Sequence record: PZ445410.1
Source: a phage
Direction: 5' to 3' (one strand)
Length of the DNA: 51,474 bases
The notes beneath the pieces were generated by a model. That model was not told the DNA's origin, did no database searches, and saw only the letters and a list, made by a program, of their open reading frames with translations. The translations under genes and the position numbers were made by a program. Positions 12,505 through 49,480 of the stretch are shown here, in pieces. Numbering within the stretch: the first letter of the stretch is position 1; the number at the start of each line of letters is the position of its first letter.

Positions 12505-12532
12505 TTGCACGTTTAACAAAAAATGCTATCAT
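12505..12532 (+). promoter_or_regulatory. sigma70-type promoter (TTGCAC, 16 nt, TATCAT)
   Basis: Hexamers with 16-nt spacer; spacer contains a reverse-oriented partial TAGCAC-box (TTAACAAAAAATGCTA). Confidence 0.4.
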
Positions 12533-27119: not shown

Positions 27120-27330
27120 AGCAACAATAGAGCGATATACATACAGATAAATATATATACATACATATAAATCAATAAGTTAGTAGTATATATATTTATA
27201 TTTGTTCTTTATTGTTATCTATGTTTTGTGTGATTTTGTGTGTCTGGTGATTTTTCTGTGATTATGTATGTGTCAGTGGTTGTGTGTGTCTATATATCTA
27301 TATCCGGCGCAAATTGAGGAACAAGAGAAC
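27120..27330. repeat. AT-rich, C-depleted iteron-like element, copy A
   Basis: Shares AAATCAATAAGTTAGT...TATTTATATTTGTT core and GT-rich GGTGAT/GTGAT word repeats with 49265-49480. Confidence 0.6.
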
Positions 27331-29654: not shown

Positions 29655-30107
29655 ATGCATATTATTACTGGTGAGATCCGAAAAGAGCCGCGAGTAAAGC
29701 AAATGCCTAACGGCAGCACACTTTATGTAGTTGAACTTCCAGAGCGATACAAAGATAAAGATGGAAACTGGCAATATACAAACTACAGTTTCTTTTTTAA
29801 TGCTAAAACAGAAGGTATTAAGGGTTGGTATGATGAGGCGTTCCAGGTTGGCAAGGTTATTTCTGTATCTTGCGACACTCTGCGCATTGAAACGCGAGAA
29901 TACAACGGAAAGATGTATTCAAGTTTAATGCCAGGAGGATTTGCAAATCTTATCTTCAGTCAGCGCGGGGAAAGCCAGCAACAATATCAGCAGCGAACGC
30001 AATGGGGATGGGGCCAACCACAACAACAGAATCAACCGCAACAACCGCAACAGCCAAGACAAAGCAATCAGCCACCTATGGATTTTGACGACGACATCCC
30101 TTTTTGA
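29655..30107 (+). CDS. ssb: single-stranded DNA-binding protein
   Basis: OB-fold-like N-terminal region, Gln/Pro-rich linker, C-terminal tip DFDDDIPF as in E. coli SSB. Confidence 0.85.
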   Translation: MHIITGEIRKEPRVKQMPNGSTLYVVELPERYKDKDGNWQYTNYSFFFNAKTEGIKGWYDEAFQVGKVISVSCDTLRIETREYNGKMYSSLMPGGFANLIFSQRGESQQQYQQRTQWGWGQPQQQNQPQQPQQPRQSNQPPMDFDDDIPF

Positions 30108-30111
30108 TCAG

Positions 30112-30136
30112 TAAAGGGGCATTACGCCCCTTTTTC
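30112..30136. terminator. bidirectional intrinsic terminator
   Basis: AGGGGC-ATTAC-GCCCCT flanked by A/T runs. Confidence 0.65.
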
Positions 30137-30379
30137 ACCCTCAGCCATCCCAAGAACAGCAATCACCTTAACAGCAATTCGCTTTGCAAGTTCAGTTTGA
30201 TGAGCGTTCAGCTTTCCAGTGGTCATTATTGACAACATTCCGCTCATACTTCCAAGCCCGTTAAAATCTGACATTGCCGATTTCATGATTGATATTGGTG
30301 AGTGACCCTCATCAGCTATTGTGTGCGCTCTCTCTGACAGGTCTTTAACTACCTGAGCAATTCCTTCACTTTTCGTCAT
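30122..30379 (-). CDS. hypothetical protein (85 aa)
   Basis: ORF, last gene of a minus-strand operon. Confidence 0.45.
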   Translation of the reverse strand: MTKSEGIAQVVKDLSERAHTIADEGHSPISIMKSAMSDFNGLGSMSGMLSIMTTGKLNAHQTELAKRIAVKVIAVLGMAEGEKGA

Positions 30380-30857
30380 TTGCTTTTCCTTCAGGAGTTG
30401 ATTGCTGTTCTGGCATTACAGGCCACGGGCTAATTGATTCCCTTTCTGCTACTGGCTTTTCAGGTTCAATTCCTAAAAACTTTCCTACAAACTCACCAAC
30501 AAAATTTGAGCTATCGCTTACATAAACATGCATCCTGTCTAGATCTGCAACAGTAACGCTATTTGGTGCGATCATGATCCTCTGTTGGTGAAAACCGATA
30601 TACATCACATTAGCCGGACGCTCAAGAGTCCCCATATTTGGCGCAATTACGCCCATTATCCAACAATAATGAATGTTGCCATCAAGCGGCTCACATCCAG
30701 CGTTAAGCCAGTTTACTTTCTGGTGAGGAAACGCCATTGATGAATCAGTAGCATCACGCCGTAACGACCATTTAACTCCGCCAATCTCAATGATTTGTTT
30801 CGGCCTCATCCCGTTGAATTGAGTCACGCCAGCGCCATTTTGATTAATGTTTTGCAT
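30366..30857 (-). CDS. hypothetical protein (163 aa)
   Basis: ORF. Confidence 0.5.
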   Translation of the reverse strand: MQNINQNGAGVTQFNGMRPKQIIEIGGVKWSLRRDATDSSMAFPHQKVNWLNAGCEPLDGNIHYCWIMGVIAPNMGTLERPANVMYIGFHQQRIMIAPNSVTVADLDRMHVYVSDSSNFVGEFVGKFLGIEPEKPVAERESISPWPVMPEQQSTPEGKANDEK

Positions 30858-30871
30858 ATCGGTTAACCTTT

Positions 30872-31195
30872 TTACATTGATTTCATTTTACGCAATGCGC
30901 AGATACAAGCGGCAGCAAGATCGGTTAATTCTTTCTCAATGCCATGATGCGAGCCGTCTGCCTTTTCGGTCATTAGCTCTTTGTATTCCATTTCTACAAT
31001 CGACATTAAGCCGCCTGGCTTGTCAATGTGCGCGTCCCAGGTTTTAGGATAGTGCTTAGTTCTTTCCATAACACTTCCCATAACTGAATCATGTTTGCTA
31101 TCTCGCTCATAATCATCATCATGATCATCACTCCCGATTGAAACTCGCGGCAAATGAATGCGCGGTATTTTATAGCCAGCATAACGGATCTTCAT
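30872..31195 (-). CDS. hypothetical protein (107 aa); weak MazG-like resemblance
   Basis: GAGGGTGAGATA RBS; EMEYKEL...IEKELTDL pattern; preceded by a hairpin. Confidence 0.45.
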   Translation of the reverse strand: MKIRYAGYKIPRIHLPRVSIGSDDHDDDYERDSKHDSVMGSVMERTKHYPKTWDAHIDKPGGLMSIVEMEYKELMTEKADGSHHGIEKELTDLAAACICALRKMKSM

Positions 31196-31244
31196 TATCT
31201 CACCCTCTTGATGAAAAGCGCCCCGAAAGGCGCTTGATTTATTA

Positions 31245-31946
31245 TCAGCCGCAACAGCCAGTAGGCGGAGTCTGAGGAGTAGGCAACTTGAAGTTTACCA
31301 ATTGCTCTACCTGGTTGATTTTGCAATTCAGTGCGGCGGTCTGGTTTGCCTGAGATAGAGCAAAACGCGCTTCCTGCAACTGAGCTTTCATATCGCAAAT
31401 CAAAACAGCCTGAGAATCAGCAAACTGTTGACGAATCAGATCTCGCGTTGCGTTACCTTGTCGCTCAATGTTCAGGTTAGTCTCGCAGCAACATCTTTCG
31501 GCTGCAATCTGCGCCTGATAGGAACGCTCAAGAGCATTAACATCAGCAGCATTAATCGCAGCAACTGTCTGGTTAGTACCGCTAACAATCGCGGTATTCA
31601 GTCCGGCAAAACCTTGCACCGATGCAAGCAGGCTTTGCGTATTCTGGCTGGTAATGCCGTTAAATGTTGATGCGGCGGAGCGCTCAACGGTAAGGTTTGT
31701 GGAGTTTTGGCCTTGCAGAGTTTGCAGCCCCAGGTTGTTTACGCCTGTCTGGATGTTATTAATACCATCAAGAACAGCGTTAGCACCGACAGCAACAGCA
31801 GCACCATCACCACCATAACCACCACGACCATTAAAGCCATTACCAAACCAAGACCCAATCAGGCCACCAACAGCACCGCCAAGACCAGCCGCGCCAGCTT
31901 CGCCACCAAAACCACCACCAGTAGGGAGTAAAGTCATATCTGACAT
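31245..31946 (-). CDS. glycine-zipper protein with Cys-rich C-terminus (233 aa)
   Basis: N-terminal GGGFGGEAGAAGLGGAVGGLIG; Q/N/T-rich middle; CCCE and terminal TGCCG; own AT-rich upstream region. Confidence 0.5.
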   Translation of the reverse strand: MSDMTLLPTGGGFGGEAGAAGLGGAVGGLIGSWFGNGFNGRGGYGGDGAAVAVGANAVLDGINNIQTGVNNLGLQTLQGQNSTNLTVERSAASTFNGITSQNTQSLLASVQGFAGLNTAIVSGTNQTVAAINAADVNALERSYQAQIAAERCCCETNLNIERQGNATRDLIRQQFADSQAVLICDMKAQLQEARFALSQANQTAALNCKINQVEQLVNFKLPTPQTPPTGCCG

Positions 31947-32115
31947 AGTAAATTCCTCTTTGACGTTAAAAAAATTAAAAAAAAGTTTGTAACATTTGCG
32001 TTACGACAAATAGTATGCGCCTAACTGTCAGGAATAGATATAAAGAATTTGTAAGCGATATGTCAGCAACTGGCATAAAGGCGAAAAAAGGCGCAGCCTG
32101 AGCCGCGCCTTGTGA

Positions 32116-32793
32116 TTAAATGTTGTTATTTTTTATTGATTCAATTTGGCTTTTTAATTGCTCTATTTCTTCTTTCATCCGTTTCACATGATGAATTAGC
32201 GGAACAACCAAACGCTCATACATAACGCCTTCTGCAACCATGCCATTGCTTGAGGCGATTTCTGGATCATCACCTTCTTGTAATGGCCTCCAGTGAACGT
32301 ATTCAGACGCAATCTCTCCAACTTCTTCGGCGATCAGTCCATACCAACCCCAATCTTTTCTGTCATTCTCGCAAATCGACCGATACCAGACAGGACGCAT
32401 GTCAAACATTCGATCTGCATATTCATCCATAACAGTTTCAACAGATCTTTTGTATCTTTCGGAAGACGTTGAACGAAGAACGCTTGACACTGCGGCATCT
32501 GGATTGAGATACAAGTTTGCGCCAGCGGTTGTTGTTCCAAGTCTAAAAAAGTAAACGGCCTCTTGTGCTGTTAATGGGTAAAAGTTTCCGCTATGTGTTC
32601 CGCCCTCTAATTCATTTGAAAGCTCGCTTTTCTTCATGTACGTCTTTAACTTGTTGTCAACGTCAGAGCTTGATGGCTTTGTGTTAACTTCTTGCTGCAA
32701 CGTGGAAACATTGCCTTGCAACGTGGAAACATTGCCTTTTAAAGCAGTTATATCAGCCGGAATATTTGTTACGGTAGCCATGATTAAGCCCAC
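32116..32793 (-). CDS. short tail-fibre-like protein carrying a C-terminal S74 intramolecular-chaperone domain
   Basis: SSERYKRSVE (compare SDERLK-type cleavage motif), WGWYGLIAEEVGEI and terminal coiled coil resemble the fibre chaperone domain as I recall it; only ~110 aa precede it. Confidence 0.5.
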   Translation of the reverse strand: MGLIMATVTNIPADITALKGNVSTLQGNVSTLQQEVNTKPSSSDVDNKLKTYMKKSELSNELEGGTHSGNFYPLTAQEAVYFFRLGTTTAGANLYLNPDAAVSSVLRSTSSERYKRSVETVMDEYADRMFDMRPVWYRSICENDRKDWGWYGLIAEEVGEIASEYVHWRPLQEGDDPEIASSNGMVAEGVMYERLVVPLIHHVKRMKEEIEQLKSQIESIKNNNI

Positions 32794-33062
32794 TCCCTAA
32801 GTTTTTGATCCGTCACAACGGTTCTGCTATTGAATAATTTCGCATCGTAATTATCATTAATGATGCGAGCGTTCACAAAATAACCATCATTTTTCTCTAC
32901 AATTTCCTCTCCTTCTTCCGTTACAGATACAACAGTGTAAGTGTTCCCGATAACGTCGAGAAGAATTGCATCCTGAATGGATTCGTTTTCGTTCCATTCA
33001 ATTTCTTCAAGAAAGGCAGAAAACTCTGCCTTGTCTGCAAATTTCAGTGTTAAATCTCTCAT
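32784..33062 (-). CDS. hypothetical protein (92 aa), possible fibre assembly factor
   Basis: ORF coupled between fibre gene and S74-domain gene. Confidence 0.4.
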   Translation of the reverse strand: MRDLTLKFADKAEFSAFLEEIEWNENESIQDAILLDVIGNTYTVVSVTEEGEEIVEKNDGYFVNARIINDNYDAKLFNSRTVVTDQKLREWA

Positions 33063-35017
33063 TATACAATTTCCCCCAATTGATGATCTGTTAATGCCTT
33101 ATGCCAGATCCTAAAGTTTCTAATGTGTCCAAACAAATGGCGCTCTCCAGTTCCTGTTTGTCCGCCAAACCTGATATTTTTATCTCCTGTTACGCCTATG
33201 TAATCGCAGTATGAATCAGACACTGCTATAGCATTGGTGACAACATGAAATTTGCCATCAGATTTTGCAATGCATCCAAAAGTGGATTTTTTTGCAAACA
33301 CATCAGATGCCGCGCTATTAATATATGCCCCAGCAGGCGTTGATAAACTCATGTATAATTTTCCACTTCCTCTATTTATTGCCGCAATTGCTGATTGACC
33401 AGTATTTGCAGCAGCTATATCCCAAACACGAGGGGCAGAATTTGGAGCAACATCCCAACACTTACTAACCTCAAGCAAAAAAGTAAACGGCAATTTATAT
33501 AGGTTGTTTTTTGTTGGAATGCTAACAAGATCGCTAGCTCTCGTTGTTGGCATTGAAGTTATAATAAATGACGATGCTGTATTTCCAAGTTCAATTTGCG
33601 GCGTAGCCATCGTTAACGTTGAATCAGAATAAAATGGTTCGTTGTTAATTTTATTAGTCATGTAAAATGCACAATTAACAGTGTCAACATTTGTATTGGC
33701 TGTATATGTCGCTTGATAATACATCCATTCGCCATCCTGTTCCACTTTAGCGGTTATAAGTGAAGTGTCTCCACTTACCGATGCAACCAAAGTATCAAGA
33801 TCCAAATAAGAATCAGCAGAAAATGTATCTACTCCATCAATAATTGTAGACACTCGAAGCCTGCATCTTGCTTTAGCACCTTTAACCCTACAAGAAAAGG
33901 TGAAACTTTCACCTGACACCAAAGGGAATCTATCGGCTGTAACAACTCCATGAACGGTATAACCTCCAGTAGTACCAACAATACTTTCTACAGGGGTGAC
34001 TGTAGCGTAGTTAAAACCACGATCATCCGTTCCGAAAGTTTTATTTAAAGAAGAATGAATAGTCCAAGAATCTGTTTTATTTGAGTTTCTTAGATAGTTA
34101 GTTCTTTGCCCTTCGATTAAAAGACCTTCTTTTTCAAAACGAGGTTCGTCAATCTCCGCAACAGTCAATACACCTGATTTGTTAATATAAGTTGCTGTTG
34201 AAGCGCGTGAAAATGTAACTACTTTATCTGTTGGCATAGTTATAACATCATTACCAACTGTTATTTTTTTGTAACCAGGTGCAAAGCCTGTAATCATCTC
34301 AAGAGAATCATTAAACGGTATCCACACGTCGGGCAGCGGTTGCAATAAATCTTTGTAAGGTTCTGCGGCCTGCCTTGCGTATTCCTCCGCTTGATCTCGC
34401 GCACTTTCAGCTCCTGCCTTTGCAGTGTTCGCAGCGTTACGCGCGGATTCAGCGCCAGACTTTGCTGTTTCAGCGCCAGTCTTTGCAGTGTTTGCAGCGT
34501 CGCGCGCGGATTCAGCAGCGGTCTTTGCAGTATCAGCGCCTTTCTTGCTGTTTTCTGCATTTGTTGCGCTTTTCTTCGCGTTATTCTCGCTAGTTTTAGC
34601 GGCCTTCTGGCTTGCTGCGGCCGCAGCAGCATCGCTCTTTACGTCAGCCTGTATCTGTTGAAGTTTATCCCAATCAAATGTTTCGATGATCTCAATGAAT
34701 CTGGCAAATTCAGTTTCTTTACCCTGGTAATATCGCAGTGTTTCAGCGACATCTTGCGCCAGGCCATCAACAGTTATTGAATCATGAAGCATGATCAGAT
34801 AGTTTGTCTTTGCTACAACAGCGCCGCCAGTAGTAATGGCGCGAATGCTTGTGTCGCTAATAACCTCAGTGATTACAGCGGCTTGCATTGGATTTGTTAA
34901 GAAAAATATTGTTGCACCAGGGCGAATGAGTGTTAGCTGTTCGCGCCATTTTGTGCCGTATCCAGTTATATAACCTTGCGCGTCCATTGACGCCTGTCCG
35001 GTTCTGTAAATTGCCAT
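33062..35017 (-). CDS. side tail fibre protein
   Basis: T7 gp17-like N-terminal virion-attachment region, Ala-rich tandem repeats, C-terminal lectin-like region; GGGAG RBS at chosen ATG. Confidence 0.65.
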
Positions 35018-35073
35018 GCGTTTTCTCCCATGTTGTATGTTAATGTCAATGCAGATAATAGCATTTGACAAGG

Positions 35074-49264: not shown

Positions 49265-49480
49265 AAGAACAAAATAAAATTTATATATATACCCATAAAA
49301 TCAATAAGTTAGTTATATATGTATTTATATTTGTTATTTACTGTTGAGCTTGTTCTATTGGTATATGGTGGGGTGGTATTGTTTGTGGTGATATGTATGT
49401 GTGATTGTATATTTTTTAATCAATGGTGATGTGTGGTGATTTTTGTATGTATATATATGGGTATGGGGCAATCCTCCGTC
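49265..49480. repeat. AT-rich, C-depleted iteron-like element, copy B
   Basis: Shares core with copy A; three GGTGAT words; about 110 nt with almost no C on the plus strand. Confidence 0.6.

Follow-up and report, generated by a model that had tools for sequence, protein, structure and literature searches.

Superinfection-exclusion and envelope genes of phages, such as those for Cor of T1 and N15, Llp of T5, Imm and Sp of T4, gp15 of HK97, and SieA of P22, are nonessential, are patchily distributed, and often lie at the end of a tail or fiber module. Their products are membrane anchored, and the genes are lost in laboratory lineages. We analyzed a four-gene block that resembles them in these respects, with membrane anchoring predicted for its first product, at positions 30122 to 31946 of the phage sequence record PZ445410.1 (51,474 nucleotides [nt], the whole of which is called the window). 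The source genome is that of Escherichia phage KarlJaspers (Bas06 of the BASEL collection), a T1-like Hanrivervirus of the Drexlerviridae (Tempevirinae). The four proteins, designated A to D, exactly match database entries; protein D, of 85 amino acids (aa), is bas06_0031. A first-pass annotation had read the block as an operon headed by a glycine-zipper protein and had proposed an uncharacterized host-directed function. The interpretation that we tentatively prefer, and that is possible rather than established, is that the cassette is an optional accessory module directed at the host envelope or membrane, for example for the exclusion of competitors or for interference with membrane-acting defenses, and not a part of the virion, the fibers, or the lysis machinery. 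We hold the general class, that of a nonstructural and conditionally useful accessory module, with considerably greater confidence than the specific target.

The four minus-strand open reading frames (ORFs) were found at exactly the coordinates and sizes first described: gene A (31245 to 31946; 233 aa; phrog_9288), gene B (30872 to 31195; 107 aa; phrog_9157), gene C (30366 to 30857; 163 aa; phrog_8329), and gene D (30122 to 30379; 85 aa; phrog_7239). The cassette region is 97.8% identical to that of phage phiE31-2 and about 95 to 97% identical to those of pSf-1, grams, and egaa, all of the genus Hanrivervirus. Each protein matches a PHROG family over its full length (E = 1e-42 to 1e-124), and all four families are listed as being of unknown function. 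Comparison with four diverged relatives gave dN/dS values of 0.06 to 0.27 for the four genes. Because of the low dN/dS values, the full-length PHROG matches, and a gene order that is kept in about 38 loci, A to D are more than chance ORFs; by these sequence criteria they are real genes under purifying selection.

Searches with all four proteins (tblastn) located homologs in identical order in Salmonella phage Sasha (gp07 to gp10; 64, 61, 72, and 61% identity to A, B, C, and D, respectively), in Seuratvirus KurtStettler (bas22_0024 to bas22_0027; 69, 52, 68, and 64%), and in the Yersinia myophage YenM_22 (gp30 to gp33, equivalent to ORF29 to ORF32 of PY100; 48, 36, 40, and 34%). Phages P400 and eiAU also have the cassette. 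In an iterative hidden Markov model (HMM) survey of IMG/VR and GenBank that yielded 58 loci (cited by L number where needed), A-B-C-D was intact in about 38, which is essentially every locus with a full-length A. The phages concerned belong to the Drexlerviridae, the Queuovirinae, Sashavirus, and Eiauvirus and include Yersinia siphophages and myophages. By these comparisons, the four genes make up a self-contained cassette, present at differing genome positions in at least six phage groups that are unrelated to one another. The first-pass annotation had suggested looking for conservation across relatives, and the four-gene unit is indeed syntenic across distant phages; how widely the cassette has traveled had not been seen at that stage, nor had the terminator behind its first gene or the MazG-like signal in protein B, both described below.

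The cassette follows fiber or tail genes in the Drexlerviridae (Hanrivervirus), in Seuratvirus, in eiAU, and in loci L041 and L063. In Sasha it is located between terL/HNH and the portal gene, and in P400 it forms an opposite-strand islet adjoining head and early genes. In PY100 the cassette stands as an islet in the early region, with dam and ssb as neighbors; the structural module is about 10 kb away and the fiber genes about 25 kb. T1 has no trace of A to D; its fiber gene and SSB-like gene converge on one bidirectional terminator. The cassette is likewise absent from Sfin-1, in which the fiber and single-stranded DNA-binding protein (SSB) genes abut directly, as in T1.

No relative was found in a scan of 185,579 bacterial species genomes, and the cassette is therefore regarded as belonging to virulent phages and not to prophages. 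The sole copy in a bacterial genome is a distant A-like gene of a sister clade (phrog_16490) at locus L060 (GCA_021199255.1, contig JAJQIK010000018, 6075 to 9762). With the family otherwise absent from bacterial genomes, a prophage or lysogenic-conversion gene was rejected as an explanation. The L060 gene encodes a true transmembrane (TM) helix and a Cys-rich C terminus, GCGCNSCGC. Its neighborhood contains co-directional small phage-family ORFs (phrog_21718, phrog_20016, and an SprT-like ORF) and adjoins Fic, Schlafen-like, and ParE genes.

Several phages have lost parts of the cassette. In JakobBernoulli (Bas07; L002, MZ501079, 5643 to 6347, minus strand) an in-frame amber stop at codon 78 of A replaces a near-invariant Gln, and the two halves are annotated separately in GenBank, as "hypothetical protein" and "putative sugar-binding protein." According to the BASEL paper, no Drexlerviridae isolate but JakobBernoulli forms plaques robustly on K-12 in which the O16 O-antigen has been restored, an ability that the authors credited to its lateral fibers (PMC8594841, PMC11990801). 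Because this phage is viable with a truncated A, full-length A is needed neither for growth nor, apparently, for fiber function. The A homolog of the T5-like Salmonella phage polluks (L006, NC_102110, 5791 to 6510) is a multistop pseudogene without B to D, and cassette genes are split or missing in L012, L040, and 2019SD1. In T5-like Epseptimavirus genomes a decayed A homolog, often unannotated, occurs just past the tail genes, and about 100 T5-like records keep only fragments. The T5-like remnant has the look of an old acquisition that has since decayed. Phages that retain the genes keep them under strong purifying selection, yet loss is frequent, and this pairing is the signature of a conditionally useful accessory function. 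The dispensability and the mobility of the block are both to be expected of an accessory function.

A role in the tail fibers, with A (together with B to D) serving as a chaperone, an assembly factor, or a minor component of the lateral fiber, has to be weighed against this pattern and is in our estimation rather unlikely. The labels "putative lateral tail fiber chaperone" and "putative sugar-binding protein" that were given to the BASEL phages hint at it, as does the location of the cassette directly downstream of fiber or tail genes in the five lineages named above, and fiber proteins can contain long coiled coils and Gly-rich segments. Dispensability alone is compatible with such a role, lateral fibers themselves being dispensable on K-12. 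The strongest hint is KurtStettler (L004, MZ501091, 4981 to 6513), in which the 510-aa ORF labeled "putative lateral tail fiber chaperone" joins a fiber-like N terminus and a peptidase-S74 domain in frame to A from the zipper on, with the MSDMTLLP head of A gone. However, this fusion is unique to KurtStettler; other Seuratvirus loci keep separate genes, and we down-weighted it as a Rosetta-stone link to fibers because it occurs in one phage only. The cassettes of Sasha, P400, and PY100 lie away from fiber genes, T1 and Sfin-1 have S74-type fibers without the cassette, and the fibers of JakobBernoulli appear to use the O16 O-antigen even though A is truncated. Furthermore, A has no fiber, lectin, or carbohydrate-binding module (CBM) domain, and its sister clade has a real TM helix. 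Clear homology to fiber proteins was looked for in A to D and was not found: none of the four matched PF13884 or a tail PHROG, the S74 domain being confined to a separate upstream 225-aa ORF. The GenBank label "putative sugar-binding protein," which A also carries in KarlJaspers, was rejected because Pfam, NCBIfam, and PDB sequence searches with A returned no lectin or carbohydrate-binding domain.

Protein A is the most distinctive product of the cassette. Its close family comprises 230 members at 58% identity or higher, all of about 230 aa and nearly all annotated as hypothetical, and an exhaustive profile search of 1.8 billion representatives yielded only 116 clusters, nearly all of stand-alone proteins of 200 to 290 aa. 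From the N terminus, A consists of the head MSDMTLLP, a zipper at residues 17 to 35, a polar helix with hendecad periodicity, the triplet CCC152-154, C184, C208, and a Pro/Thr tail with CC231-232. The composition first reported for A, with an N-terminal glycine zipper, a Q/N/T-rich middle, Cys clusters, and a TGCCG end, matches the sequence: residues 1 to 50 are 40% Gly, residues 51 to 150 are 41% Q/N/S/T, and there are seven Cys residues, two of them in the final TGCCG. Hallmarks of the family are an invariant N-terminal peptide, M-S/T-D-M-x-L-x-P, followed by the Gly/Ala zipper; the motif QGFAGLNTAI in the polar region, with a 22-residue repeat spacing in some members and exact repeats in relatives; the CCC triplet inside CCCETNLNIERQG; the motif LICD; and the Pro/Thr-rich tail. 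On the strength of these comparisons, A founds an uncharacterized family.

The Cys residues follow a strict rule. CCC152-154 and C184 are present in 120 to 121 of 121 homologs, whereas C208 and the C-terminal CC are either both present (87 homologs) or both missing (34), with no discordant case among these phylogenetically nonindependent sequences. Where C208 is missing, different lineages have N, Q, H, or A in its place. This Cys and the C-terminal CC evidently function together, as a disulfide knot or as a metal or thiol site.

The zipper of A, AGAAGLGGAVGGLIGSWFG, has small-xxx-small spacing and a Kyte-Doolittle (KD) hydropathy of 1.13, under the typical TM value. In the sister clade phrog_16490 (L043, L046, L050, P0240, P0250, and P0254), which is joined to A by HMM matches of phrog_16490 and phrog_9288 to the same proteins and which has the CCC motifs in common with it, a TM helix occupies the position of the zipper (for example, WMWWILIILFAFGGFG; KD 1.6 to 2.3, maximum 2.27). 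Membrane targeting of A is suggested mainly because of this helix at the same position. Positive charge is missing from the N flank of the zipper, and the C flank is neutral to +1. No Pfam glycine-zipper model (PF13488, PF13441, or PF05433) matched A at E <= 1; the distant homolog L041 reached 14 to 15 bits (E = 0.016 to 0.04) against cutoffs of 25 to 29. The first-pass claim that A resembles membrane-active glycine-zipper proteins more than virion or replication proteins nonetheless fits both the TM helix of the sister clade and the lack of any virion or replication match. One member of that clade, L043, adjoins a ThyX-like gene, and a separate 102-aa ORF elsewhere on its contig (132 to 440) has a MazG-like pattern (…EEMAELKHEL…).

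Over residues 50 to 150, A has a hydrophobic periodicity of 3.65 to 3.7, and the middle region is for this reason interpreted as a helix with hendecad periodicity and not as beta structure. A curli-like amyloid or beta-solenoid, to which the Q/N/G composition and the 22-residue repeats could point, was rejected on the same ground, a periodicity of 3.67 being that of a helix. The AlphaFold2 (AF2) model of A, built from a 29-sequence alignment, is a single helix from residue 91 to residue 219, confident over 160 to 215 alone, with an overall pLDDT of 57. A poor monomer model of this kind is the usual picture for an obligate oligomer modeled alone, which A may be.

The same architecture, a Gly/Ala-rich hydrophobic N terminus followed by a long helix, is found in membrane-active entry proteins, and hendecad periodicity and glycine-rich TM-like segments also occur in tape-measure proteins. 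It might therefore be proposed that A is delivered with the virion as a membrane-inserting pilot resembling a miniature tape measure, is kept soluble by C, and aids or protects genome entry. PDB searches with A, by single sequence and by profile, gave nonsignificant matches only, to HA2, Psb31, and SlyB; those to the fusion peptide and coiled coil of influenza HA2 (E = 0.04 to 0.2) would be in keeping with such a pilot. Yet none of the entry-protein matches is significant, A shows no evident prohead-protease or packaging signal, and the closely related T1 infects without it. A is also dispensable, often lost, and mostly encoded outside morphogenesis operons. We consider a virion-delivered pilot very unlikely.

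Expression of A appears to be set apart from that of its partners. A hairpin lies directly behind the A stop codon (31211 to 31235, minus strand; AAGCGCC-TTTCG-GGGCGCTT followed by TTTC). In eight divergent phages (KarlJaspers, Sasha, PY100, L019, L021, L023, L037, and L063) a GC-rich hairpin of nearly identical sequence (AAGCGCC...GGCGCTTTT) begins within about 10 to 15 nt of the A stop and is followed by a T run and then by the ribosome-binding site of B. The hairpin is kept in all versions of the cassette from enterobacterial phages that were examined, and the curated annotation of Sasha places terminators after gp07 and gp10. It is predicted to be an attenuator or terminator or, alternatively, a stabilizer of the mRNA 3' end. 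Because the hairpin was conserved while the proteins diverged to 45 to 70% identity, selection is likely to have favored either high A with lower B-C-D or a stable end of the A transcript. The first-pass description of the block as an operon has to be qualified: B, C, and D are closely packed (14 nt separate B from C, and C and D overlap by 14 nt), but the hairpin and T run set gene A apart from the other three. The overlap of the D start with the end of C suggests translational coupling of D to C.

A fixed ratio of A to B-C-D, as the attenuator would set, is one of the features that might be expected of a toxin and its antidotes. A would then be a depolarizing or pore-forming zipper toxin restrained by B to D, in a cassette for timed host takeover or addiction. 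Kim, Jeon, and Bowie reportedly described the glycine zipper in 2005 as a typical feature of proteins that form channels and pores, and movement of the cassette as a unit between unrelated phages and the co-occurrence of A and C as a core pair would also suit such a device. However, A is predicted to exceed its putative antidotes, whereas most toxin-antitoxin systems work the other way round; some relatives (L042 to L056) have A alone and lack the partners; and none of the proteins has a PADLOC or Pfam toxin match. Bacterial genomes, the usual additional home of addiction modules, do not have the family. A toxin-antidote or host-shutoff function is thus improbable.

Proteins B, C, and D have no signal peptide and no hydrophobic segment (maximum KD, 0.58 to 0.96) and are predicted to be soluble. 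Protein B combines a variable, acidic or His-rich N terminus with a conserved 60-residue C-terminal core of two helices with the pattern ExExxE...ExExxD. This reads EMEYKE...EKELTD in KarlJaspers and most homologs, with the Asp changed to His in L041 and L058. The B homologs of L005 (Sasha), L014, L016, L032, and L037 have long His-rich N-terminal tracts, such as HHHHHYHHGHHPD; in place of a His tract KarlJaspers B has the Asp/His-rich stretch DDHDDDYERDSKHD. A profile of 19 B homologs matched the PDB entry for AF_0060 (2p06), a member of the all-alpha NTP-pyrophosphatase superfamily, at E = 0.007, with a sensible alignment of the core and with the His tag adding to the score. Six of the 19 members touched Pfam PRA-PH/MazG models below threshold (best E, 3.7e-4), and KarlJaspers B itself matched neither model. 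B is probably a divergent MazG-fold protein with a putative activity, which would account for the label "putative pyrophosphatase" in some records. The B profile gave no match at the loci of the A-only clade.

These features raise the possibility of a cytoplasmic nucleotide, metal, or redox function, in which the Cys layers of A and the His tracts of B would bind a metal or redox center while B hydrolyzed a nucleotide (an alarmone, a signaling nucleotide, or a noncanonical dNTP) at the membrane. The matches of B to the MazG/PRA-PH clan and to AF_0060, the ExxE...ExxD pattern kept in most members, the HHHHHYHHGHH tracts of several B homologs, and the invariant Cys clusters of A can all be read in its favor, and the lack of positive charge on the N flank of the zipper is compatible with an N-out/C-in topology that would place the Cys-rich domain in the cytoplasm with B to D. 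Against this, the MazG signal is under the curated Pfam thresholds, part of the PDB score is supplied by the His tag, the most divergent B homologs have His where the putative catalytic Asp would be, B is missing from the L063 version of the cassette, and A has no recognizable metal-binding or redox domain. We therefore regard this function as highly improbable.

The AF2 model of C has an alpha+beta fold with a confident core (pLDDT 83 to 91) and a disordered acidic, Pro-rich tail. Foldseek found no match to it in the PDB and only its own family in BFVD, and PDB sequence searches were empty. The model faintly resembles Eag/SecB-type chaperones, and the chaperone idea is to be taken as a lead only. 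C is the most constant partner of A: in the distant gut phage L063 a phrog_8329 member directly follows A without a recognizable B or D, and the ORFs at the position of C in L058 and L041 align to the C profile in hhalign (E = 3e-4 and 6e-3, respectively). D is probably a small, soluble, helical protein, and PDB searches gave it no meaningful match, only spurious designed-protein repeats. Of the three proteins that the first-pass annotation could not place, C and D hence stay orphans, whereas B is weakly MazG-like. The remote homology and structure prediction that it had suggested were in the same way informative in part, with a poor model for A, a usable one without a PDB match for C, and nothing for D.

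No member of a virion, fiber, replication, lysis, or defense family was recognized among A to D in Pfam, NCBIfam, PADLOC, and the PDB, and no component in PADLOC-DB matched at E <= 1. No similarity to superinfection-exclusion proteins turned up in the general family scans (Pfam, PHROGs, and NCBIfam). No functional data or published function were found in the literature on 9NA-like phages, Drexlerviridae proteomics, TLS, Sfin-1, PY100, P400, and BASEL. Among the specific roles listed in the first-pass annotation (envelope modification, exclusion, toxin/immunity, and counterdefense), none was favored above the rest by homology, by a structure match, or in a publication. A second spanin or holin was rejected, since a holin-endolysin-u-spanin cassette is present elsewhere in the genus, A has no lipoprotein partner, and A to D have no lipobox.

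For a host-envelope or membrane-directed accessory module, the interpretation that we prefer, the following sequence of events can be proposed. Transcription of gene A would start from a leader of its own, and A would outnumber B-C-D as the hairpin attenuated read-through. A might insert into the host inner membrane by its N-terminal glycine zipper and oligomerize through the long polar alpha-helical region of 11-residue periodicity, and the Cys layers (CCC, C184, and C208 with the C-terminal CC) could then lock or functionalize the assembly through interchain disulfides or as a metal or thiol site. MazG-fold B, C, and D would be cytoplasmic helpers, with C possibly holding the zipper, which is weakly hydrophobic, until it inserts. 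Once assembled, the module would act on the envelope or membrane of the infected cell, most plausibly against competing phages or membrane-acting host defenses. Such a module would pay off in some hosts only and so would often be lost. Of the elements of this proposal, the anatomy of the cassette, its conservation as a unit, its mobility and dispensability, the attenuator, and the coupling of the Cys residues are shown by the sequences, whereas membrane insertion, oligomerization, the parts played by B to D, and the biological target are inferred.

Several points weigh against this proposal. The searches described above supplied no homology that ties A to D to membranes, exclusion, or defense; the KD of the A zipper is under the usual TM threshold, with no Pfam glycine-zipper match at E <= 1; the charges flanking the zipper give no clear topology; and the AF2 model of A is poor. 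A scan upstream of gene A did not identify a promoter for the cassette. The adjacency of the cassette to tail-fiber genes in five lineages and the fusion of A to a fiber chaperone domain in one phage could reflect a fiber-related role. In addition, known exclusion proteins are usually encoded by single small genes, not by four-gene sets.

A more far-reaching version, which we consider unlikely, is that the cassette encodes a new membrane machine in which A, as founder of a new superfamily (phrog_9288 plus phrog_16490), forms a membrane-anchored hendecad coiled-coil oligomer whose Cys layers serve as a redox or metal switch or as a pore, loaded by a holdase C and MazG-fold B, and directed against competitors or membrane-acting abortive infection. 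If true, this would be a new counterdefense or exclusion mechanism without a characterized relative.

The surroundings of the cassette agree with the neighbors first described for it, an SSB terminator on one side and a fiber module on the other. The SSB gene (29655 to 30107, plus strand) converges with the cassette on a common bidirectional hairpin (30114 to 30135; GGGGCGTAATGCCCC; repeat family D8), which serves both the SSB gene and gene D and has the D stop codon in its loop. Upstream of gene A is the lateral fiber module, three minus-strand ORFs at 32116 to 35071 that encode a 669-aa fiber protein, a 92-aa protein (phrog_1361), and a 225-aa protein with a peptidase-S74 chaperone domain. 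The 225-aa ORF has a GTG start, its match to long fiber proteins (phrog_3299) is confined to their C-terminal 220 residues, and a 63-nt tandem repeat is found inside the fiber gene at 34405 to 34530.

The terminator of the fiber module, read from the sequence as a GGCGCGGC-TCAG-GCTGCGCC hairpin with T6 (32084 to 32109, minus strand), marks the start of the cassette leader, and the relative L019 has a similar hairpin ahead of its A leader. The 5' leader or promoter region of gene A (31947 to 32083, minus strand) is AT rich and has a good Shine-Dalgarno sequence, AAAGAGGAA, 8 nt before the ATG. The AT-rich upstream region that the first-pass annotation had noted is confirmed by the intergenic interval of 169 nt (31947 to 32115), which has a GC content of 38% versus 44% for the genome. 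A promoter scan gave no convincing sigma-70 promoter upstream of gene A in KarlJaspers, and Rfam recognized no RNA family in the genome.

The phage also has a recurrent intergenic element, of which the cassette leader has no copy. About 17 copies of AAATAGCAC(T/G)nTTTGTTAAAAC (AAATAGCAC...TTGTTAAAAC), often with a variable hairpin and CATAAT after them, are oriented with the downstream genes. Plus-strand copies are at 361, 1346, 2648, 3993, 8253, 22185, 28544, 39107, 40148, 50383, and 50846, and copies in the reverse orientation are at 12512, 16273, 43397, 45565, 46241, 48108, and 48985. An unexplained "21-base intergenic repeat" in T1-like phages was mentioned in the TLS paper (PMC11447400). 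The element matches this repeat, and its appearance is that of a promoter or regulatory signal specific to the phage. Two TG-rich repeats of 110 nt (27169 to 27278 and 49298 to 49407; 71% identical), with internal sub-repeats of the TGTGTGAT type, are each located in a long intergenic region at which coding seems to change strands; these may be origin or regulatory regions.

The individual genes of the cassette were already known as four PHROG families of unknown function and are annotated as hypothetical in many genomes. The present analysis adds their behavior as a unit and its mobility across phage families, the attenuator, the hallmarks of A and the Cys rule, the TM-bearing sister clade, the A-C pair, and a natural knockout. 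About half of the genes of T1-like phages have no assigned function, and the cassette is among the better-defined pieces. Its function is directly testable because the natural knockout (Bas07), an intact allele (Bas06), and the fusion allele (Bas22, KurtStettler) coexist in the BASEL collection. If the cassette is an exclusion or counterdefense device, it would represent a new multicomponent class in a field of mostly single proteins, and its presence or absence could matter in the choice of therapeutic phages.

The comparison with described systems shows partial likenesses only. The exclusion genes named at the outset encode single small lipoproteins or proteins with one or two TM segments that have no sequence or fold similarity to the cassette, whereas the cassette has four genes and an internal attenuator and combines a helical, Cys-rich protein of 230 aa with three soluble partners. 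A resembles glycine-zipper proteins (Gly-zipper_Omp, Gly-zipper_YMGG, SlyB/PCP lipoproteins, and VacA) in its GxxxG-type spacing within a Gly/Ala-rich, weakly hydrophobic N-terminal segment of about 20 residues, but it lacks a lipobox and has a 180-residue helical, Cys-bearing domain that is absent from those families. Influenza HA2 and phage spanins likewise have a Gly/Ala-rich hydrophobic N terminus, a long helix, and conserved Cys residues in common with A. However, the matches of A to HA2 are nonsignificant (E = 0.04 to 1.3), and, unlike spanins, A has neither a lipoprotein partner nor a C-terminal TM segment, a u-spanin being already present in the lysis cassette of the phage. C has no sequence similarity or Foldseek match to the Eag (DUF1795) chaperones of T6SS prePAAR effectors (SciW, 6xrb; EagT6/PA0094, 1tu1) or to the Mog1/PsbP-like fold, and membership in that group is unsupported. 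The C-terminal 60 residues of B align to the two-helix core of MazG/PRA-PH pyrophosphohydrolases, including AF_0060 (2p06), with an acidic ExxE...ExxD-like pattern. Compared with those enzymes, B scores under the cutoffs, has a shorter domain, and does not keep the last acidic residue in distant members, consistent with an activity that is best described as putative.

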